Assembly: GCA_903916765.1 (NCBI GenBank)
Contig: CAIWXV010000106.1
Span: 1 to 43,743, forward strand
Direction of reading: 5' to 3'
DNA: 43,743 nt
From: an uncultured Dehalococcoidia bacterium
GTDB taxonomy: Bacteria > Chloroflexota > Dehalococcoidia > Dehalococcoidales > Fen-1064
How positions within the stretch are numbered: the first letter of the stretch is position 1; every line of letters begins with the position of its first letter. The notes beneath the pieces are model-generated. The model was not told the DNA's origin. It ran no database searches and saw only the letters and a program-made list of their open reading frames with translations. Of this stretch, positions 6,113 to 22,103 are shown piece after piece. The position numbers and the translations under genes were made by a program.

Positions 6113-6481
6113 ATGATTAACAGTATTCTATTGTATATAGGCTCCTCATTAATCACTGTCTGGGGAATCGCCAATTTGATACCGACAAGGGCTATCGTAC
6201 GCGGTTTCGGAGCGATATCAGAAGATAACAAGAAGATAATCACGATGGAATCGATTGCCGAGGGTATCACTCTTTGCTTTATCGGAGTGCTGGTAATTCT
6301 CGTTACAAGTCTATCCGTGTTTCCAGACAAGATTGCTATTATTGTTTATCTGGCATGTGCCATAATGCTTTTTGTGATGGCAATTCTGAACACATTAACC
6401 GGAGCCAGAACTTCTATTTTGCCTTATAAGATTTGCCCCTTCGGAAAACAGTGGGATGTTCTAGTATTATCTAACGATTAG
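6113..6481 (+). CDS. Small integral membrane protein, unknown function
   Basis: 122-aa ORF with about 4 hydrophobic segments. SD AAGGAG lies upstream and a terminator hairpin overlaps the stop codon. Confidence 0.6.
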   Translation: MINSILLYIGSSLITVWGIANLIPTRAIVRGFGAISEDNKKIITMESIAEGITLCFIGVLVILVTSLSVFPDKIAIIVYLACAIMLFVMAILNTLTGARTSILPYKICPFGKQWDVLVLSND

Positions 6482-6510
6482 CTTGGCTTTTTGCCAAGCT
6501 AATATCTTTT
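6478..6510 (+). terminator. Rho-independent terminator
   Basis: TTAGCTTGGC-ttttt-GCCAAGCTAA followed by TATCTTTT. The stem includes the stop codon of the 122-aa ORF. Confidence 0.7.

Positions 6511-12771: not shown

Positions 12772-12793
<22 letters not shown>
12614..12793 (+). pseudogene. C-terminal remnant of a recombinase-like (large serine recombinase-type) gene abutting the tRNA
   Basis: A 59-codon ORF reads MTKYYPTTCRAFIRTFVKDIRVKDGRVELMYTIPLPPKDKVSSESEVLSIVQFGSGGWI. The xFIxxFVKxIxV...Y.IPLP pattern resembles recombinase C-termini as I recall them. The last 22 nt overlap the 3' end of the tRNA on the opposite strand, and no catalytic domain is present upstream. Confidence 0.4.
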
Positions 12794-12846
<53 letters not shown>

Positions 12847-13337: not shown

Positions 13338-14105
13338 ATGTTCTTAGCGATCGATATCGGCAACACCAATGTAACCATAGGCGTATTCGAAGGTGAAAAA
13401 CTACTCCACACCTGGCGTCTGGAAACAGATATTCGTAAGATGCCCGACGAGTACGCTACAACGCTCATCAACATCATGCAATTTCAGAAGATAGAAATAG
13501 CCGACATCAAAGAAATTGCACTGTGCAGTACCGTAGCACCACTCATTTCCACTTTTGGCGAATTCCTGCAAGATTATTTCAAGGTCAGTCCGTTGGTAGT
13601 CGGCCCGGGTGTCAAAACAGGCGTCCGTATCCGCCTCGATAACCCGAAGGAAGCAGGTTCCGACCGAATTGTGAATACAGTCGCCGGTTTCCGATTATAT
13701 GGGGGACCGTCGATTGTCGTCGACCTCGGAACCGCAACAACATTTGATGTTATTTCGAAAGAGGGTGATTATCTGGGCGGAGCGATTGCACCGGGATTGA
13801 TCATTTCCGCCGAAGCACTTTTCTCAAGAACTGCCGCACTACCACGCATTCAGCTTACCCACCCGCAGAAAGCCATCGGCACCGCCACTATCTCAGCCAT
13901 GCAATCCGGTTTGATGTTCGGTTATGCGGGTCTGGTGGAAGGCATTGTAGCACATATCGAAAAGGAATTGGGCGAAAAAGCAAAGGTAATCGCTACCGGC
14001 GGTTACTGTACCGTTATCGCTAAAGAAACAAGCGTGATTAATGTGGTTAACCCTGATTTAACACTCATCGGTCTGAGAATGATTTATCAGATGAATAAGG
14101 TGTAG
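13338..14105 (+). CDS. coaX: Type III pantothenate kinase
   Basis: N-terminus MFLAIDIGNTNVTIGVF with ASKHA-fold motifs. 255 aa, SD AAGGAGGG. Confidence 0.92.
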   Translation: MFLAIDIGNTNVTIGVFEGEKLLHTWRLETDIRKMPDEYATTLINIMQFQKIEIADIKEIALCSTVAPLISTFGEFLQDYFKVSPLVVGPGVKTGVRIRLDNPKEAGSDRIVNTVAGFRLYGGPSIVVDLGTATTFDVISKEGDYLGGAIAPGLIISAEALFSRTAALPRIQLTHPQKAIGTATISAMQSGLMFGYAGLVEGIVAHIEKELGEKAKVIATGGYCTVIAKETSVINVVNPDLTLIGLRMIYQMNKV

Positions 14106-14127
14106 TAACAAAGGAGAGGGTGGTAAA

Positions 14128-15321
14128 ATGTTAACCAACAAAACAATCGTACTCGGTATTACCGGCGGGATTGCCGCCTATAAAGCAGTGGACATTGCCA
14201 GCAAGCTGACTCAGGCAGGAGCTAACGTCAGAGTAATTATGACTAAGTCAGCTCTGGAATTCATCACTCCTTTGACTTTTGAAAGCATCACCGGTAATGC
14301 TGTTGTTACGGATATGTTCCAGACTAATGCCGAACATCGAATCAACCATGTCGCCCTCTCTGAGATTGCAGACGTAATCGTTATTGCACCGGCAACGGCT
14401 AATATCATTGCCCGAATTGCCTGCGGTATGGCGGACGATATGCTCGCCTGCACTGTGCTGGCAACCAAAGCCCCGGTCATTATCTCGCCATCGATGCACA
14501 CTAATATGTATGAGAACAGCATCACACAGGAAAATATCGCCAAGCTTAAAGAGCGAGGATTTACAATTATTGAACCGTCGGCAGGACGGCTTGCCTCCGG
14601 TGGTTATGGAATCGGACGACTTCCCGATACGGAAGTAATTATCGGCGCTATCCAACAGACACTCGGCAAGAGTGGCAACCTGAAAGGCAAAAGGATTGTG
14701 GTAACAGCCGGTGGGACACAGGAAGATATCGACCCGGTGCGTTATATCGGCAATCGCTCTTCCGGTAAGATGGGCTATGCCATCGCTGAAGCTGCACGGG
14801 ATAGAGGCGCCAATGTAACACTCATTACCACCCCCACCGCACTTGCCATCCCGGAAGGGATTAAAACAGTAACAGTCCGAAGTGCCCTACAGATGAAAGA
14901 CGTGGTGGTCAAAGCAACTGCTAAGGCTGATGTTCTTTTAATGGCCGCCGCAGTAGCTGACTATACGCCCAAAACCACTGCAAAACAGAAGATTAAGAAA
15001 GGCGCCGGCGGCTTGACATTGGAGTTGGTGAAAACACCGGATATCATCTCCGAAGTCAAAGGCAAGTTCCTGAAAATCGGTTTTGCCGCTGAGACACAGA
15101 ATTTACTCGCCAATGCCAAAAAGAAGCTAGCCAGCAAAGGCTTAGATATGATTGTCGCCAATGACGTTACTTCAAAGGGAAGCGGCTTCGGCACAGACAC
15201 AAATAAGGTCACACTTATTAGTAAAGACGGTAAACAGGAGAGCCTCCCACTGATGAGCAAAAGAGAAGTCGCAGAGAAGCTTATGGATAGAGTGGGAAAG
15301 ATGATTGGGAAGAAAAGGTAG
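14128..15321 (+). CDS. coaBC: Bifunctional phosphopantothenoylcysteine decarboxylase / phosphopantothenate-cysteine ligase
   Basis: N-terminal flavoprotein domain (GITGGIAAYKAVD) and C-terminal DFP/CoaB domain. 397 aa, adjacent to coaX. Confidence 0.93.
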   Translation: MLTNKTIVLGITGGIAAYKAVDIASKLTQAGANVRVIMTKSALEFITPLTFESITGNAVVTDMFQTNAEHRINHVALSEIADVIVIAPATANIIARIACGMADDMLACTVLATKAPVIISPSMHTNMYENSITQENIAKLKERGFTIIEPSAGRLASGGYGIGRLPDTEVIIGAIQQTLGKSGNLKGKRIVVTAGGTQEDIDPVRYIGNRSSGKMGYAIAEAARDRGANVTLITTPTALAIPEGIKTVTVRSALQMKDVVVKATAKADVLLMAAAVADYTPKTTAKQKIKKGAGGLTLELVKTPDIISEVKGKFLKIGFAAETQNLLANAKKKLASKGLDMIVANDVTSKGSGFGTDTNKVTLISKDGKQESLPLMSKREVAEKLMDRVGKMIGKKR

Positions 15322-15341
15322 GGAGATGTCATCGCTTGTGA

Positions 15342-15371
15342 TTGACACTCACCCCTATACTGTGTTATTTT
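15342..15371 (+). promoter_or_regulatory. Promoter of the valS leader
   Basis: TTGACA (15342-15347), 18-nt spacer, extended -10 TGtTATTTT (15363-15371). Confidence 0.5.
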
Positions 15372-15379
15372 TACCAGTA

Positions 15380-15412
15380 ATGACCATTAACCCAGTCGTC
15401 GTCGTTATGTAG
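15380..15412 (+). CDS. Candidate valS leader peptide MTINPVVVVM (four consecutive Val codons)
   Basis: ATG ACC ATT AAC CCA GTC GTC GTC GTT ATG TAG. The ATG lies 9 nt after the -10 hexamer, so the transcript would be near-leaderless. The regulatory helices start 4 nt downstream of the stop. Confidence 0.5.
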   Translation: MTINPVVVVM

Positions 15413-15415
15413 TGA

Positions 15416-15472
15416 AGCCGGCATGTGGGACTTATCCTAGTTGAAACCCAGAGCCGTCCCACAAGGACGGCT
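15416..15472 (+). promoter_or_regulatory. Candidate antiterminator (two-part helix) competing with the valS leader terminator
   Basis: AGCCG (15416-15420) pairs with CGGCT (15468-15472), and TGTGGGAC (15424-15431) pairs with GTCCCACA (15456-15463). Together they occupy both arms of the terminator. Confidence 0.5.
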
Positions 15473-15480
15473 TTTTTGTT
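15452..15480 (+). terminator. Intrinsic terminator in the valS leader (attenuator)
   Basis: AGCCGTCC-cacaa-GGACGGCT followed by TTTTTTGTT, 41 nt upstream of the valS start. Confidence 0.75.
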
Positions 15481-15520
15481 AATAGTAGAAAAATATGGAT
15501 GCTCCTGAGGGAGAATGAAT

Positions 15521-18199
15521 ATGTCAGACACACCTTTAACCGAACAGGAAATGCCGAAAGCCTACGATCCCAAAAACGTCGAGGGTAAATGGTATAAATT
15601 CTGGCTGGAGCGGGAATATTTCAAACCTGTCATAAATCCTAAGAAGAAACCTTTTACTATCATTATGCCCCCGCCGAATGTGACCGGCGAATTACATATG
15701 GGTCACGCTCTGACCGCCGCCCTGGAAGACATTATGATACGGTGGCACAGAATGAAAGGCGACCCTTCTTTATGGTTGCCGGGTGTCGACCATGCCAGCA
15801 TTGCTGCTCAGGTAGTCGTCGAAAGAATGCTTGCCAAAGAAGGCACGAACCGTTATCAGATTGGACGCGAAAAGTTTCTGGAACGAATGTGGCAATGGAC
15901 AGATGAATGCCGCAGTAGAATCGGACAACAACACCGCCGACTGGGAACTTCCTGCGACTGGGCACGCGAGAAATTCACTTTAGACCCCGGTCCTTCGCTG
16001 GCAGTCCGCACTACCTTCGTCAATCTCTACAATAAAAAACTCATTTACCGAGGCGAACGCATCACCAACTGGTGTCCGCGTTGCGCTACCGCCCTTTCCG
16101 ACCTCGAAGTCGACCATAAGGATTTGAACGGGCACCTGTGGCACATCAAATATCCCCTGGCTGACAGCGATAGTTATCTCATTGTCGCCACAACACGACC
16201 GGAAACAATGCTCGGCGATACCGCCGTCGCTGTTAATCCCGAAGATGAACGCTATACTGCCATAGTGGGTAAAGAAGTGATGTTGCCCATTATGAACCGG
16301 CTTATTCCCGTCGTTGCCGATGCCATCGTGGATAAAGCCTTCGGCACCGGCGCCGTCAAAGTCACACCGGCACACGACCCGGTGGACTTCGAGATTGCCC
16401 AACGACACAAGTTGGCACTCATCAATATCCTGAACAAAGACGCCACGATGAATGAAAATGCCGGGCAATGTAAAGGTATGGACCGATTCGCCTGCCGTAA
16501 ATGGGTAGTGGAAGAACTACAAAGGCTGGGATTATTAATCAAAATCGAGGATTACAGCCATGCGGTAGGTCATTGTCAACGTTGCGCTACCGTCATTGAG
16601 CCGATGGCAAGCACACAGTGGTTTGTCCATATGGAGCCGCTGGCAAAACCGGCAATCAAAGTGGTCAAAAACGGCCACATCAAGATTATGCCGGAGCACT
16701 TCACCAAGGTTTACCTAAACTGGATGGAAAATATCCGTGATTGGTGCATTTCCCGCCAATTATGGTGGGGACACCGCATTCCGGCATGGTATTGCAAAGA
16801 CTGCGGCGAGACGATTGTTGCTGTCGAAACACCGCAAAAATGTCCCAAATGCCATTCGGTAAAGCTGGAGCAGGACCCTGATGTTCTGGATACATGGTTT
16901 TCATCCGGTCTCTGGCCCCATTCCACGCTCGGCTGGCCTCATGATACGGAAGATATGCGCTACTTCTACCCTACCAACGTGATGGAGACAGCTTACGATA
17001 TCCTGTTCTTCTGGGTCGCCCGAATGATTATGATGGGCATCGAGAACACCGGTGAAATCCCCTTCAAATACATTTATTTACACGGGCTTATCCGCGACGA
17101 AAAAGGCGATAAGATGAGCAAGACGAAAGGGAATGTCACCGACCCTCTGAAAGTCATCGAGCAAATCGGCGCCGATGCTCTGCGCTATGCAGTCATTATC
17201 GGCAATGCCCCAGGTAATGATAGTAAAATGTCGCCTGTGAAGTTGGAGGCGGGTAGGAACTTCGCCAACAAGCTCTGGAATGCCACGCGCTTTGTAATCA
17301 GAAGTATCCCTGAAGATAAGGTTAATCTTAAAATTCAGCGGGACTCCCTTCCGGCGGAGGACCAATGGATACTGAGTCGGCTTAACCGCACCATCGAGAG
17401 CGTCAATAAAGCAATGACAAACTTCCAATTCGGGGATGCATTAAGCACGATTTATGACTTCCTCTGGAACGAATACTGCGACTGGTACATCGAACTGGCA
17501 AAAATACGCCTTAATTCAGAATCTAAAGACACTGTATCACCTCTGCCGGTGCTGGTCTATGTCCTGGAGACAGCATTACGATTGCTCCATCCTTACATGC
17601 CATTCGTCACAGAAGAATTATGGCAGAACCTCAAACACCGTCTGCCAGATAAATGGCAGAAAACAGACTCGATTATGGTTGCCAAATATCCTAAAACCGA
17701 TAAAAAAGCGATTGATGCCAAAGCAGAAAGAGTTATCGAGGCAATGATCGATATGACCCGCGCCATCCGCAATATCCGTGCAGAGAATAAGGTGGAGGTA
17801 AACAAGTGGATTGCCGTCGACGTTTATACAGGGCAACTGACTTCAGCACTGATTCCCTATTCTTCTGCCATCCAGACGTTGGCAAAAATAAAACCGCTCG
17901 ATTTCAAGAACAGTCGCTTATCCGGTACAATGAACGAGAAATTTGCAGTGGCAGTTCTCAGGGATTCGGATGTAGTTGTGCCGATGGCAAGTATGATTGA
18001 CCTCGCCGTCGAAAAAGAAAGAATCCAGAAAGAGCTGGTACAGATGGAAGCCGATATAAACCGTCTAGAGGCACGCCTTAAAGACGAGGCTTTCCTGAGT
18101 AAAGCTCCCCAGGCAGTAGTCGCCAAAGAAAAAGAACGGCTGGTAGAAAGAAAAAAACACATTGCCCGGTTGAAACAACAGATTGGGGAAAGAGGCTAG
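15521..18199 (+). CDS. valS: Valine--tRNA ligase
   Basis: HIGH-type motif PNVTGELHMGHAL, KMSKT motif, CP1 editing domain and C-terminal coiled coil. The ATG at 15521 is preferred (SD GAGGGAG 7 nt upstream); the ATG at 15515 is an alternative. Confidence 0.95.
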   Translation: MSDTPLTEQEMPKAYDPKNVEGKWYKFWLEREYFKPVINPKKKPFTIIMPPPNVTGELHMGHALTAALEDIMIRWHRMKGDPSLWLPGVDHASIAAQVVVERMLAKEGTNRYQIGREKFLERMWQWTDECRSRIGQQHRRLGTSCDWAREKFTLDPGPSLAVRTTFVNLYNKKLIYRGERITNWCPRCATALSDLEVDHKDLNGHLWHIKYPLADSDSYLIVATTRPETMLGDTAVAVNPEDERYTAIVGKEVMLPIMNRLIPVVADAIVDKAFGTGAVKVTPAHDPVDFEIAQRHKLALINILNKDATMNENAGQCKGMDRFACRKWVVEELQRLGLLIKIEDYSHAVGHCQRCATVIEPMASTQWFVHMEPLAKPAIKVVKNGHIKIMPEHFTKVYLNWMENIRDWCISRQLWWGHRIPAWYCKDCGETIVAVETPQKCPKCHSVKLEQDPDVLDTWFSSGLWPHSTLGWPHDTEDMRYFYPTNVMETAYDILFFWVARMIMMGIENTGEIPFKYIYLHGLIRDEKGDKMSKTKGNVTDPLKVIEQIGADALRYAVIIGNAPGNDSKMSPVKLEAGRNFANKLWNATRFVIRSIPEDKVNLKIQRDSLPAEDQWILSRLNRTIESVNKAMTNFQFGDALSTIYDFLWNEYCDWYIELAKIRLNSESKDTVSPLPVLVYVLETALRLLHPYMPFVTEELWQNLKHRLPDKWQKTDSIMVAKYPKTDKKAIDAKAERVIEAMIDMTRAIRNIRAENKVEVNKWIAVDVYTGQLTSALIPYSSAIQTLAKIKPLDFKNSRLSGTMNEKFAVAVLRDSDVVVPMASMIDLAVEKERIQKELVQMEADINRLEARLKDEAFLSKAPQAVVAKEKERLVERKKHIARLKQQIGERG

Positions 18200-18211: not shown

Positions 18212-18946
18212 CTATTTCTTTCTCTCAGTGATTGTCTTGGTGATAATAATACTGTCCGGATAACCACAACGATTCAACCAGTCGAGGGCTTTCTTGGTAT
18301 CGCTGGCAACCCGTGATTTGTCGCAATTCTGGACGCGGTATTTGAAAAGCCAATAAGTAAATTCTTTCAATTCACTGAGGCTGATGGATTTGAGACGGCG
18401 GTAATGTTTTTCTCTGCGGAACTTCTCCAGTAACTCCGGTTGAGTCGCATCGTAAATCCGCTGAAAAGCCTCGGCAGTAGTATCCTCTTCTTTCATCAAT
18501 CCCGCAGTCAGACGTTCTTTGCGCACTTCTTCTTTCACCGACAGTAAAAGAGCCTCTTCCACGGTTATGCCGTAAAAGTAATTCAAGTACTGACGGTACT
18601 TTGTAGAGCCGAGCAACGCCTGGAACTTTTCTTTTGTTATATCAAGCGGCGGCTTGCCCTTCAGCAGAAAATCCGATTTTTCTTTCTCAGGAAGTAAGCT
18701 ATCAACTGCCTCGCAAAGTCGCTCCGCCACTAACTGCCAGTCGAAAGCAGAGCCAGCGATCAGATATGTATAATGGCGACTCTGGTAGGTTTCCTCGGGA
18801 GAACCCCATTTGCCGACAGCTTCCAATAAAGACAGATACCAGTGTTTGCCTGAAGCAATCGAACCCCGGAGATGGCGGATGGCTTCATCATCCAGAGAGG
18901 TCAATTGCGAAGATATTTCTTTATCATGAGCATGGGGTTTGCCCAT
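18212..18946 (-). CDS. Hypothetical protein (244 aa), no family recognised
   Basis: Long ORF with SD GGAGAG. It overlaps the upstream HhH gene by 23 nt and is the last gene of the prs-secA transcription unit. Confidence 0.65.
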   Translation of the reverse strand: MGKPHAHDKEISSQLTSLDDEAIRHLRGSIASGKHWYLSLLEAVGKWGSPEETYQSRHYTYLIAGSAFDWQLVAERLCEAVDSLLPEKEKSDFLLKGKPPLDITKEKFQALLGSTKYRQYLNYFYGITVEEALLLSVKEEVRKERLTAGLMKEEDTTAEAFQRIYDATQPELLEKFRREKHYRRLKSISLSELKEFTYWLFKYRVQNCDKSRVASDTKKALDWLNRCGYPDSIIITKTITERKK

Positions 18947-19217
18947 TTGTAGTCTCTCCGATTTCCACTTTCAATTTTTCGTAGAACTGGAGCCTCCCGG
19001 TATCGAGCATCTCGTTAATTTTCTTTTCTATGGCATCTCCGACACCGGAGATTTCTCTCAATCTGCCTTCAGATGCAAGTTGAGATAGCTCCACGGGAAA
19101 TTTCTCGATTTCATCCGCCACTTTCCGGTATGCCCGAATCTTGAACCAGCTTTCTTTCTTCTTTTCCAGCAAGCGGGCAATATCACGGAATATTGCAGCG
19201 ATTTGCTGATTGGTCAT
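18924..19217 (-). CDS. Stand-alone helix-hairpin-helix protein resembling the N-terminal 8-kDa domain of family X DNA polymerases
   Basis: MTNQQIAAIFRDIARLLEKKKESWFKIRAYRKVADEIEKFPVELSQLASEGRLREISGVGDAIEKKINEMLDTGRLQFYEKL matches the PolX N-terminal pattern. The start lies 4 nt after the secA stop. Confidence 0.7.
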   Translation of the reverse strand: MTNQQIAAIFRDIARLLEKKKESWFKIRAYRKVADEIEKFPVELSQLASEGRLREISGVGDAIEKKINEMLDTGRLQFYEKLKVEIGETTNGQTPCS

Positions 19218-19220
19218 AAA

Positions 19221-22103
19221 CTATTTTCCGCAGCAGTGCTTATACTTTTTGCCACTGCCGCAAGGACAAGGGTCGTTCCTGCCTACTTTCTTACCCTCTA
19301 CCTTCTCCGTCGGTTTCACGCTATCACCGGCACGACTGGCATTGGCAACCTGCGCCATCGGGGAAGCGGTCTGTTTGGGAGGCGGTCCTTTGGTGATATT
19401 GAGATTGAAGATATTATGCACCAGGTCATGGCGAATACCCACCATCATTCCCTCAAAAAGTTCATGCCCTTTACGTTTGTAAAGGGGCAGCGGGTCTTGA
19501 CCTATTGCTTGCAAACCTATTCCCTGCCGCATATTGTCCATACTCGTCAAATGGTCAACCCAATAATTATCAGTGACGCGCAACATCAAGAGGCGTTCCA
19601 GCATCCTTGTGCTATCGGCACCAAGTTCGCTTTCTCTTTTCTCGTAGAGAGACTCGGCTTGTTCCAACAACCGGTCTTCGATTTCATTAGGTTTCAGCTC
19701 TGCCAGAGATTCCTCACTGAACTCTTTTGGCAGAGGCATAATTGTTTTAACGTCAGTAACGAATTGGCTCAAATTACTATCGCCGGATTCCCCGGTATGA
19801 GATGCGATGATATCTGCCATCTCTTCTTTAATCATTGAAAAGATGTTTGCCCTGAGGTCAGCGCCGCTCAAGATTTTACGTCGTTCACCGTAAATGATTT
19901 CCCGCTGGTTATTAACTACATCATCATAATCAACCAGATGTTTACGAACGTCAAAGTGATAACCTTCGACTCTAATCTGAGCGCCCTCGATTGCCTTATT
20001 GACTATAGAGTTCTCAATCGGAACATCTTCGCCGATGCCAGCCCATTCCATAAACTTTCCGACACGGTCGCCGCCAAAACGTCGCATAATATCATCTTCC
20101 AGCGAAACATAGAATCGGGTACTGCCTGGATCGCCCTGACGCCCTGCCCTACCTCTCAACTGGTTATCGATACGCCGCGCCTCATGCCGTTCTGTGCCGA
20201 TGATATGCAAGCCGCCTTTGGCGATAACCTCATTGTGCTCTTGCTGCCATTCTTCGGGATTCCTACCGTCAGGCTTACCCCCTAGGACGATATCCACACC
20301 TCTGCCTGCCATATTGGTCGCTACTGTCACAACACCTATTCTACCTGCTTGAGCAACAATATTAGCTTCCTTCTCTTGCTGTGCTTGCTTCGCATTCAAT
20401 ACCTGATGAGGAATACCTTTCCGCTTCATCCTTTCGCTCAAATCTTCAGACTTTTCCACCGAGACCGTACCGATCAAAATCGGACGACCTTCTTTATGAA
20501 GTTCCTCGACCTCATTGACCACCTGATTGAATTTTGCATCCTCGTTCTTATATATTTTATCGGTGAAATCTTGACGCGCTGTCGGCTGATTAGTAGGAAT
20601 AATCACTACCTCAAGCTTATAAATCTTGTGGAACTCTTCCGCCTCTGTAACGGCCGTGCCCGTCATGCCTGCCAGCTTCTGGTACATACGGAAATAGTTC
20701 TGGAAAGTGACGGTAGCATATGTTCTGGATTCTTCTTCAATATGCACCCGCTCCCCATTTGCCACCTCTTTGGCTTCGATGGCTTGATGTAAACCATCGG
20801 AATACCGCCGACCATGCATCATCCGTCCGGTAAATTCATCGACAATGACTACCTTGCCATTGTTAACGACATATTCCTTATTCTTCTTAAAAAGGTTATG
20901 AGCGGTAATTGCCTGTCGGATATAGTGTTCCCACTTCGATTGGAATTCGTGCAGGCTCTCAATATTGAGTTTGTTTTGAGCTTTATCCACTCCTTCAGCT
21001 GTTAGCATGACGGAATGATTTTTGTCGTTGATTAAATAATCCAATCCTTCTTCCAGGTCAATACCTTTCTGCTTTGCCTCACTTTCTTCGAGGTCAGTAA
21101 CAATTTTACCCGTCAGTTGTCGGGCAACTTTATCGACAATACTGTATTTCTTCAGAGCGCCTTCTTCCGCAGGTCCACTAATGATAAGCGGTGTGCGCGC
21201 CTCATCGATGAGGATATTATCCACTTCATCCACGATGGCATAATTCAAATCACGCTGAACACACTGGTTTAGGTCGATGACCATATTATCCCGCAGATAG
21301 TCGAAGCCAAACTCATTATTGGTGCCGTAGGTGATATCTGCCTGATAGGCTTCTTTGCGCGCGACAGGTCTGAAGTGACGCCACGGATCGTCTTCCTTAC
21401 CGCTATCATAACCGGGGTCATAGATGAAGGAAACCCCACTCTGTGCGCCAGTGGTTTGCTGACCCTGGATACTCGATACGCTCGCACCTAAAGCATGATA
21501 GATAGGGCCCATCCAGTAAGGGTCACGCTTGGAGAGATAATCATTGACCGTAACCAGATGCACACCTTTGCCGGTCAGTGAATTCAGATAAAGAGGAAGC
21601 GTTGCTACCAGCGTCTTACCTTCACCGGTCTTCATTTCGGCAATTCTCCCTTGATGAAGAACGATGCCGCCCATCAGCTGGACATCGAAGTGACGCTGTT
21701 TAATAGTGCGTTTTGCCGCCTCACGAACCGCCGCAAAAACTTCCGGGAGAAGTTCATTCAAAGCTTCATTTTGTGCTTTTTGTAGTTCTTTCTCAAACTG
21801 CTCCAACTTCTCTTGCAATTGCTTATTGGTTGCAGTCTCATTTTCCTTCGTGTACTCATCCGGTGCTGATGCTAACCGTGTTCTGGCTTCTTGCAACTCC
21901 TGCCGAGTTGTGTCCACTTCCCGTTGAATATCAACCGCAGCTTTAGTTAATCTATCTTTAAACTCTTCTGTTTTGGCTTTTAGTTGCTCGTCGGAGAGCT
22001 TTTCAAATTCAGGTTCAAGAGAGGTTATCCTATCTACGGTAGGTCGAACTTTTTTCAGTTGTTTTTCATTGGAATCGACTAAATTACCAAGCCATTTAAT
22101 CAT
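19221..22103 (-). CDS. secA: Preprotein translocase ATPase SecA
   Basis: Walker A MKTGEGKTL, DEVDNILIDEARTPLIISG, C-terminal zinc-binding tail CPCGSGKKYKHCCGK. 960 aa. Confidence 0.97.
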   Translation of the reverse strand: MIKWLGNLVDSNEKQLKKVRPTVDRITSLEPEFEKLSDEQLKAKTEEFKDRLTKAAVDIQREVDTTRQELQEARTRLASAPDEYTKENETATNKQLQEKLEQFEKELQKAQNEALNELLPEVFAAVREAAKRTIKQRHFDVQLMGGIVLHQGRIAEMKTGEGKTLVATLPLYLNSLTGKGVHLVTVNDYLSKRDPYWMGPIYHALGASVSSIQGQQTTGAQSGVSFIYDPGYDSGKEDDPWRHFRPVARKEAYQADITYGTNNEFGFDYLRDNMVIDLNQCVQRDLNYAIVDEVDNILIDEARTPLIISGPAEEGALKKYSIVDKVARQLTGKIVTDLEESEAKQKGIDLEEGLDYLINDKNHSVMLTAEGVDKAQNKLNIESLHEFQSKWEHYIRQAITAHNLFKKNKEYVVNNGKVVIVDEFTGRMMHGRRYSDGLHQAIEAKEVANGERVHIEEESRTYATVTFQNYFRMYQKLAGMTGTAVTEAEEFHKIYKLEVVIIPTNQPTARQDFTDKIYKNEDAKFNQVVNEVEELHKEGRPILIGTVSVEKSEDLSERMKRKGIPHQVLNAKQAQQEKEANIVAQAGRIGVVTVATNMAGRGVDIVLGGKPDGRNPEEWQQEHNEVIAKGGLHIIGTERHEARRIDNQLRGRAGRQGDPGSTRFYVSLEDDIMRRFGGDRVGKFMEWAGIGEDVPIENSIVNKAIEGAQIRVEGYHFDVRKHLVDYDDVVNNQREIIYGERRKILSGADLRANIFSMIKEEMADIIASHTGESGDSNLSQFVTDVKTIMPLPKEFSEESLAELKPNEIEDRLLEQAESLYEKRESELGADSTRMLERLLMLRVTDNYWVDHLTSMDNMRQGIGLQAIGQDPLPLYKRKGHELFEGMMVGIRHDLVHNIFNLNITKGPPPKQTASPMAQVANASRAGDSVKPTEKVEGKKVGRNDPCPCGSGKKYKHCCGK

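Follow-up and report, generated by a model that had tools for sequence, protein, structure and literature searches.

A candidate Val-codon leader-peptide attenuator of valS in an uncultured Dehalococcoidia bacterium

Introduction

How is the gene for valyl-tRNA synthetase (ValRS), valS, adjusted to the supply of charged tRNA-Val in the Dehalococcoidales? The question is raised by a 43,743-nt stretch of DNA from an uncultured Dehalococcoidia bacterium (contig CAIWXV010000106.1 of GenBank assembly GCA_903916765.1; the whole stretch is called the window here), in which a promoter, a ten-codon open reading frame (ORF) with four consecutive Val codons, and an intrinsic terminator precede valS. Feedback on synthetase genes by tRNA charging runs through T-boxes in Firmicutes and some other groups, through leader peptides, and through protein autoregulation, as at thrS. 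Leader-peptide attenuation of a synthetase operon is established for Escherichia coli pheST (pheM), and runs of Val codons serve as the sensor in ivbL, the leader of E. coli ilvBN. To our knowledge, almost no gene regulation has been described for the Dehalococcoidales. We propose that the leader in the window is probably a Val-tRNA-responsive, ribosome-mediated transcription attenuator of valS that follows the logic of trpL and pheM. If so, valS would join the synthetase genes under leader-peptide control, and the leader-peptide solution would be found in the Dehalococcoidales, an uncultured, slow-growing group.

The valS leader in the window

The leader and the gene behind it comprise the following features, some of which were compared with 15 clade sequences and one further relative, L019, introduced below.

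15342-15347, + strand: -35 hexamer TTGACA, from a consensus promoter scan; invariant in 15/15 clade sequences and in L019
15363-15371, + strand: extended -10 TGtTATTTT; hexamer TATTTT at 15366-15371, preceded by TG, with an 18-nt spacer from the -35
15380-15412, + strand: leader small open reading frame (sORF) of 10 codons, MTINPVVVVM and TAG (ATG ACC ATT AAC CCA GTC GTC GTC GTT ATG TAG)
15395-15406, + strand: putative regulatory Val codons GTC GTC GTC GTT, read from the sequence
15391-15429, + strand: candidate 1:2 helix (anti-antiterminator), CCCA/UGGG plus GUCG/CGGC, from the minimum free energy (MFE) fold of 15380-15480
15416-15431, + strand: antiterminator 5' strand (region 2), AGCCG, gca, UGUGGGAC; from folding and sequence conservation
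15456-15472, + strand: 3' strand of the antiterminator: GUCCCACA, from the 5' arm and loop of the terminator, and CGGCU, where the terminator 3' arm ends
15450-15478, + strand: intrinsic terminator from a terminator scan, with a 10-bp GC-rich stem at 15450-15474, loop CACAA, and a U tract to 15478
15507-15513, + strand: Shine-Dalgarno (SD) sequence of valS, GAGGGAG, read from the sequence
15521-18199, + strand: valS, valine--tRNA ligase, an 894-aa ORF (Pfam tRNA-synt_1 4e-140, Anticodon_1, Val_tRNA-synt_C)

The promoter, sORF, antiterminator, and terminator of the original prediction, which had been made from the DNA letters and a list of ORFs, were all found again base for base and at the same positions. 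With its extended -10 the promoter scores 10/12 in the consensus scan and is the top promoter-like site in 14000-16500; the scan gives no other promoter on the + strand between coaBC and valS. Only 8 nt separate the -10 from the ATG of the sORF, making it near-leaderless, and its TAG is directly followed by a second in-frame stop, TGA, at 15413-15415. Rare-codon use was not detected at the Val run in the window clade, as GTC and GTT are common codons. Between the terminator and the valS ATG lies a gap of 42 nt, and the consensus scan found no promoter-like site between 15478 and valS; this agrees with the earlier view that no promoter stands between the terminator and the valS SD. The same was true after the terminator in L081 and L166, which carry an insert of ~130 nt there, and in L163.

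Homologues of the window ValRS retrieved by protein search carry the name valine--tRNA ligase. Two in-frame ATGs open the gene, at 15515 and 15521, and the true start is most likely that at 15521, because both the SD spacing and the N-termini of relatives (MSDA.., MTDT..) favor it: GAGGGAG aligns with the AAGGAG/GGAGA of relatives, 7 nt ahead of their ATG.

Competing folds of the leader RNA

The antiterminator pairs AGCCG (15416-15420) with CGGCT (15468-15472) and TGTGGGAC (15424-15431) with GTCCCACA (15456-15463), while the terminator arms AGCCGTCC and GGACGGCT flank cacaa and are followed by T6. The two structures are mutually exclusive: bases 15456-15472, including both 3' segments of the antiterminator, are common to both, and the antiterminator's AGCCG is a copy of the five bases that open the 5' arm of the terminator, with which it competes for CGGCU. 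Free energies were computed for these alternatives, which the original prediction had set against each other, and came to -20.6 kcal/mol for the antiterminator with exactly the pairs first proposed, -23.7 kcal/mol for its optimised form, and -14.6 to -15.9 kcal/mol for the terminator.

We also detected a structure that the original prediction lacked. In the candidate 1:2 helix the Val-codon region pairs with region 2 (-10.6 kcal/mol alone), which completes the classical 1:2, 2:3, 3:4 layout, though its prediction is inconsistent across relatives. The unconstrained MFE of the window leader flips with two bases at the 5' end, between the antiterminator at -28.1 kcal/mol and the 1:2 helix plus terminator at -27.0 kcal/mol, and the two states are therefore nearly isoenergetic. 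In full leaders, the antiterminator and terminator differ by no more than ~3 kcal/mol for most sequences; when the transcript ends before the terminator 3' arm, all clade sequences tested have region 2 folded onto region 3.

Both helices were followed through 15 sequences in an alignment, A2, whose blocks were aligned by hand, N-padded, and kept column for column; a MAFFT alignment (A1) was dropped because it shifted the C run out of line. On A2 the antiterminator is formable in 15/15 sequences and 92.9% of its 196 cells pair, as against 24-51% when the partner strand is slid by 1-3 columns, and 98.0% of the terminator cells pair. Most relatives carry an extra inner helix over the base of the terminator 5' arm, either GUCUC/GAGGC or, in leaders of the L163 type, CCUG/CAGG.

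Conservation of the leader in relatives

Relatives were sought with ValRS in one genome per species, in metagenomes, and by protein search. The scan of one genome per species gave metagenome-assembled genomes (MAGs) of Dehalococcoidales/Dehalococcoidia as its best matches, at no more than 70% identity, and the metagenome scan gave two loci at 82-83%; the protein search uncovered a dense cloud at 74-88%, annotated as valine--tRNA ligase of Dehalococcoidales, from which the DNA of twelve was fetched. The cassette stands upstream of valS in 14/14 fetched loci with ValRS at least 74% identical (74-88%), and also in L019, a Dehalococcoidales MAG whose ValRS is 62% identical. All of these keep the promoter, and also the in-frame Val run, the 5' arm of the antiterminator, and the terminator, the parts whose conservation the original prediction called for. 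Loci with ValRS at 63-70% identity, such as L001-L004, L021, and L083-L091, do not carry the cassette, which appears to be confined to one clade plus L019.

The consensus promoter is TTGACA-17/18-TGnTAnnnT, with TGTTATCTT, TGTTAATCT, or TGCTAATTT as the -10 of relatives at the equivalent site. It is followed by an sORF of 10-17 codons with an ATG start and VVVV, VVV, or VVIV; by region 2, AGCCGG-n2-3-GUGGG(A)C, of which AGCCGG-n2-3-GUGGG is kept in 15/15 clade sequences; and by a terminator of the form GCCGUCC(C)-loop-(G)GGACGGC-U6. The near-leaderless start, remarked on as an unusual feature when the leader was first described, recurs in L171 and L172 (8 nt from -10 to ATG), in L162, L169, and L173 (7 nt), and in L019 (9 nt), and the remaining relatives have a 5' untranslated region of ~20 nt with an AAGAGAG or ACAGAGT SD-like motif. 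Such a start is thus a recurrent state of the family and not an accident, and its recurrence suggests that leaderless translation may be routine in the group.

The peptides encoded by relatives are diverse: MNTTAVVVTK, MKTTVVVVTI, MNKTVVVVTI, MLNLVVIVTSLSR, MLVRVVVVTNLSR, MLNLVVVVTNFSR, and MQITVVVVTNLSR, together with MLHLVVVTKSSR, MNFVCLVVVVTK, MKNLLVVVVTYLSR, MKSIFISVVVTSTYLSR, MKSIIISVVVTSTYLSR, and MNNITSVVVMSTYLSR. All that is conserved is the start codon, the run of Val codons, which number 3-4 in each of the 16 homologous leaders, and a stop codon located at region 2 or within it. The first of these Val codons occurs as GTC, GTG, GTT, and GTA, its GT being constant and its third base any of the four; this synonymous variation is a coding signature. 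Some leaders place the stop codon immediately ahead of AGCCGG, and others immediately behind it (AGC CGG TAA); irrespective of where it falls, the last Val codon lies 12 nt from AGCCG in 12/15 sequences, a distance that matches the 3' edge of a stalled ribosome.

One relative departs from the uniform run: in L161 (1392-1433) an Ile codon interrupts the Val codons (MLNLVVIVTSLSR), a hint of either tolerance for one codon other than Val or co-sensing of Ile.

Specificity and genomic setting of the cassette

We searched the window and 169 other loci (1.17 Mb, both strands) for the composite of an sORF of 6-30 codons with VVV or VV.V whose stop lies at most 70 nt before an intrinsic terminator. 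The composite was found upstream of valS in 17 loci and in 2 places elsewhere, a roughly 400-fold enrichment upstream of valS, and the two exceptions look like tails of longer ORFs, judging from their position and peptide. Among sORFs before terminators, VVV was counted 39 times and the equivalent run of any other residue at most 8 times, counts that are inflated by overlapping starts and duplicate terminator calls. A covariance model, R1, built from the 15 clade sequences with L019 not among them, recovered those 15 and also L019 (34.8 bits, E 2.6e-7), and had no other match in 1.19 Mb (173 loci plus the rest of the window) beyond valS leaders. On this sequence evidence the composite element is not a product of chance. 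A possible second attenuator in the window was rejected: the + strand terminator at 6477-6503 merely follows a 122-aa membrane ORF.

The upstream gene is coaBC in the window, L161, L163-165, L170, and L172; in other loci that place is taken by genes for a restriction enzyme, an ATP-grasp protein, or a divergently transcribed cytidylate kinase, by hypothetical genes, or by something else. As the upstream gene varies, the cassette belongs to, and travels with, valS, and the distance from U tract to valS ATG is only 18-25 nt in L161, L163, L165, and L168. This setting bears on the idea that the hairpin is a mere terminator of the upstream coaX-coaBC operon, with the sORF and antiterminator coincidental. 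coaBC ends at 15321 without a terminator of its own before the leader, no other terminator occurs before 15450, and the leader's is the sole + strand terminator in 14000-16500; yet a strong conserved promoter separates coaBC from the hairpin, and L162, L166, L167, and L169 have the same leader behind an unrelated gene or one on the opposite strand. Given also the enrichment of the composite upstream of valS, and the many Dehalococcoidales that have coaBC directly before valS and no such hairpin, we consider this explanation extremely unlikely. The hairpin may in addition stop read-through transcripts from coaBC, a role that would leave the rest of the cassette unexplained.

Ribosome position and the choice of fold

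The attenuator reading predicts that the ribosome on the sORF decides which helix forms. We represented it as a mask from A-15 to A+12 around the codon in the aminoacyl (A) site, and took the mean pair probability of the terminator core, P(terminator), as the readout. This thermodynamic model of base-pair probabilities supplanted equilibrium MFE folding with masks, which had given mixed results. For the ribosome-free window leader P(terminator) was 0.58. It fell to 0.03-0.04 when any of Val codons 1-3 occupied the A site, and rose to 0.88 for Val 4 and to 1.00 for both the next codon and the stop. When the 3' edge of the footprint was varied from +9 to +15, at least 2 Val codons stayed at or below 0.05 and the stop stayed at 1.00. 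Numerically, then, the modelled leader behaves according to the geometry first suggested for it, in which stalling would free the antiterminator and a ribosome at the stop codon would permit termination. The mask model gave the same ribosome-position switch in L171, L161, L172, L082, and L167, and a partial one in L081.

What the analysis shows directly is that the sequence elements exist, are conserved, and are linked to valS, that the RNA has alternative folds of the stated energies, and that in the model the outcome depends on ribosome position. From them we infer a transcription start, translation of the sORF, stalling, and a response in vivo. Transcription would start at the conserved sigma-70-type promoter, with an RNA beginning at the AUG or 1-3 nt before it, and the 10-codon leader ORF would be translated by a ribosome as RNA polymerase moves along the leader. 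A shortage of charged tRNA-Val would stall the ribosome with Val codon 1, 2, or 3 in the A site and its 3' edge short of 15416, leaving region 2 (AGCCG...UGUGGGAC) free to pair with the emerging GUCCCACA and, afterwards, with CGGCU; this would sequester the 5' arm and loop of the terminator, polymerase would read through, and valS would be made. If Val-tRNA is plentiful, the ribosome would reach the last Val codon and the stop and cover region 2, the terminator hairpin and U tract would form, and transcription would end near 15478. Where no ribosome is present, for example on read-through transcripts from coaBC, in which the sORF has no SD, the Val-codon region may pair with region 2 and give partial termination.

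Several results weigh against this reading. The terminator is favored at equilibrium at all ribosome positions in 9/16 leaders (L163, L165, L168, L170, L166, L162, L173, L169, and L019), and a switch in those nine relatives would have to be kinetic and co-transcriptional, as in trp. Covariation is not detectable on A2, where the columns hardly vary and none of the five measures exceeds the shuffle controls, so that the compensatory changes hoped for in both helices at the outset were not found. The substitutions that occur are one-sided and pair-preserving (G-U/A-U in column 37, C-G/U-G in columns 38 and 25, U-A/U-G in column 33), apart from one double change from C:G to G:C, read by eye from the folds, in the innermost helix between L081 and L163 types; conservation and compatibility, not covariation, appear to be what supports the structures. 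The inner helix (GUCUC/GAGGC) is shrunk to 2 bp in the window, and the stability of the window leader does not differ significantly from that of shuffles (z = -1.88). Leaderless translation of the sORF is assumed for an uncultured lineage, and the clade sequences are not independent confirmations of one another because they share a single evolutionary origin. The residual doubt on the attenuator stems from the lack of covariation and from the equilibrium behavior of half the relatives.

That equilibrium behavior would also be expected if the promoter, sORF, and terminator formed an independent small gene, encoding a micropeptide or a small regulatory-type RNA (sRNA) of ~100 nt, with valS expressed by constitutive leakage and no valine sensing. 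The nine relatives in which the terminator is favored whatever the ribosome position fit this view, the unit does have its own promoter and a strong terminator, and short hydrophobic peptides can be functional. We nevertheless find it improbable, because the unit, whatever its genomic context, always stands directly before valS and has no copy elsewhere in the 1.19 Mb; because valS has no promoter of its own and a gap of only 18-42 nt; and because peptide length (10-17 aa) and all residues bar the Val run vary freely. Nor would a small gene need a region 2 that is conserved and complementary to the terminator, or a spacing from Val run to region 2 that is conserved independently of the stop position.

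T-boxes and other sensors

In other Chloroflexota and in Firmicutes valS is under T-box control, and the terminator loop region of the window leader has CAC, the anticodon of one tRNA-Val. Both facts would fit a switch that is set by a factor in trans, either uncharged tRNA-Val through a degenerate T-box or ValRS through thrS-like autoregulation, with the sORF incidental. However, the leader is only ~100 nt long and has no Stem I, specifier, or T-box sequence; L162, L169, and L173 have CGC in place of CAC, whose presence is accounted for by pairing with the GUG of region 2; and the loops, of 3-6 nt, are not the 7-nt loops of an anticodon. A factor in trans would also leave the in-frame Val run with its synonymous variation unexplained, and we judge it very unlikely.

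A T-box match was the finding that the original prediction had named as a competing account of the structures. We found no match to RF00230 at E <= 10 in 15200-15650, and the identical scan detected the T-box of L058 (2600-2923, a Caldilineaceae MAG) upstream of valS at 63.4 bits and E 1.4e-13, a score below the Rfam gathering score of 93. With this positive control under the same settings, a T-box identity was rejected for the window leader. The Rfam leader families were rejected as well: the sole match, to Phe_leader, was at the level of noise (16.6 bits against a cutoff of 55) and involved the terminator hairpin only, and neither the window nor 8 loci with the leader contained a match to Phe_, Leu_, Thr_, His_, or Trp_leader that reached its gathering threshold. 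A scan of the window and 13 loci at Rfam gathering thresholds returned nothing beyond tRNA-Met. A thrS-type operator does not fit a loop of 3-6 nt followed by a U tract, in an element that ends 29 nt before the SD and whose CAC is not conserved, and anticodon mimicry by the loop CAC was rejected for the same lack of conservation and for its wrong loop size.

Other valS leaders in Chloroflexota

T-box sequence motifs were present upstream of valS in ~40 other loci, among them L022, L024, L026, L076, L116, L150, and ~30 Firmicutes. Chloroflexota use two different RNA sensors at valS, and, with T-boxes at this gene in relatives of the same phylum, the loci compared here are a record of turnover between two RNA sensors that respond to one signal.

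We detected a second, unrelated family of high-GC valS leaders (GC 70-74%, ValRS ~50% identical) in three loci:

L025, 2860-2957: high-GC valS leader
L137, 1790-1912: high-GC valS leader
L071, 2829-2931: high-GC valS leader

These leaders have a -10 TACCAT, an ATG 6-9 nt later, and the sORFs MHTPVVVVPGGG, MNTITAPAVAVVVA, and MHERDVAVAAGG, followed by a GC-rich hairpin from the stop codon and then a terminator, GCCCCGCUCCG(ac)GCGGGGC (GCCCCGCUCCGGCGGGGC). Every Val codon in the sORFs is GTA, a codon that makes up 9-12% of Val codons in those loci. No antiterminator was found in this family: P(terminator) is ~1 at every ribosome position in the mask model, and inspection by hand gave only alternatives of 4-5 bp. 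The high-GC leaders might couple stalling to termination outside the classical 2:3 helix, possibly by ribosome-dependent melting of a clamp hairpin or by lost ribosome-polymerase coupling. These loci show that Val-codon sORFs before valS extend beyond one lineage. That Chloroflexota replaced the valS T-box at least twice with leaderless Val-codon leader peptides is a speculative scenario, to which we give limited credence.

Comparison with known systems

The proposed valS attenuator shares with trpL and ivbL a four-region logic of a 1:2 helix, a 2:3 antiterminator, and a 3:4 terminator, and differs from them in that they serve biosynthetic operons, not a synthetase, and have SD-led sORFs. The valS T-box acts at the same gene, also from a 5' leader and by terminator read-through at low tRNA-Val charging, but its sensor is uncharged tRNA on an RNA of ~200-300 nt and not a translating ribosome, and the window is without a T-box signal.

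pheST has been cited as the precedent for leader-peptide attenuation of a synthetase (PMC1262725). Like its leader pheM, the window leader has a short ORF with cognate codons and an antiterminator opposed to an intrinsic terminator, and would control a synthetase by ribosome stalling. The amino acid (Val instead of Phe), the gene, and the phylum differ, there is no sequence similarity, and the window sORF is near-leaderless. The window antiterminator further differs from that of pheST in pairing with the terminator 5' arm plus loop and with the end of the 3' arm, and in that its AGCCG repeats the start of the 5' arm.

Classical attenuators have been predicted upstream of leuS and trpS2 in Streptomyces (Seliverstov et al. 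2005, PMC1262725). Those cases too are comparative-genomics predictions of a cognate-codon leader peptide with an antiterminator and terminator before a synthetase gene, in a lineage in which T-boxes are not the usual device (PMC1262725); they concern Leu and Trp synthetases in Actinobacteria and have no sequence relationship to the valS leader, and the study reported nothing for valS (PMC1262725). A report on mycobacteria describes leaderless polycysteine sORFs as amino-acid-responsive attenuators (Canestrari et al., 10.1101/834739; Mol Microbiol 2020). They resemble the window sORF in being leaderless, in having consecutive codons for one amino acid, and in standing at the 5' end of an operon, and they differ in sensing Cys, in governing cysteine-related operons, and in belonging to another phylum.

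A full-text literature search of incomplete coverage found no leader peptide or attenuator for valS and no attenuator of any kind in Dehalococcoidia, which is absence of evidence only. The mechanism proposed is classical and no new principle, and is apparently undescribed for valS and for the Dehalococcoidales. The conserved cassette of ~140 bp may offer a compact, testable valine-responsive switch, and marks an unannotated, putatively translated sORF for genome annotation.

Flanking genes and variation among leaders

The genes around the leader and valS in the window are as follows.

12772-12846, - strand: tRNA-Met (anticodon CAT), between a corA-like gene and coaX
13338-14105: type III pantothenate kinase (coaX), from Pfam
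14128-15321, + strand: coaBC, the gene directly upstream (Pfam Flavoprotein, DFP); context, outside the device
18212-18946, - strand: 244-aa ORF with no Pfam match, 3' of valS on the opposite strand
18924-19217, - strand: 97-aa ORF, downstream of valS
19221-22103, - strand: secA, downstream of valS

The tRNA-Met is the sole Rfam or ARAGORN match within the window. Downstream of valS, L162-L164, L170, L171, and L173 encode a 232-244-aa protein without Pfam match and an 81-97-aa HHH_8 protein in the same order as the window, and secA is third in order in those relatives where annotation exists.

In two other Dehalococcoidales, the spacer between coaBC and valS has a GC-rich hairpin and no Val-rich sORF (L007, ~2925-2995, GGGCGACCCCGAGGGGTCGC; L008, ~2900-2990, GAAGGGGCATATGCCCCTTC). 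Among relatives with the cassette, L170 (1390-1433) has a longer terminator stem (CAGGGCCGUCCC/GGGACGGCCCUG) and a poor U tract (CCTGTTTGTT), and is possibly a weakened or altered variant of the attenuator. Six relatives have an insert of ~70-130 nt between the terminator and the valS SD (L081, 1866-2000; L166, 1365-1495; L162, 1380-1495; L169, 1395-1495; L170, 1425-1495; L172, 1410-1495). These inserts are rich in short repeats of the CTGA/TCAG type, and L165 and L170 also have similar repeats on the upstream side of the leader promoter.

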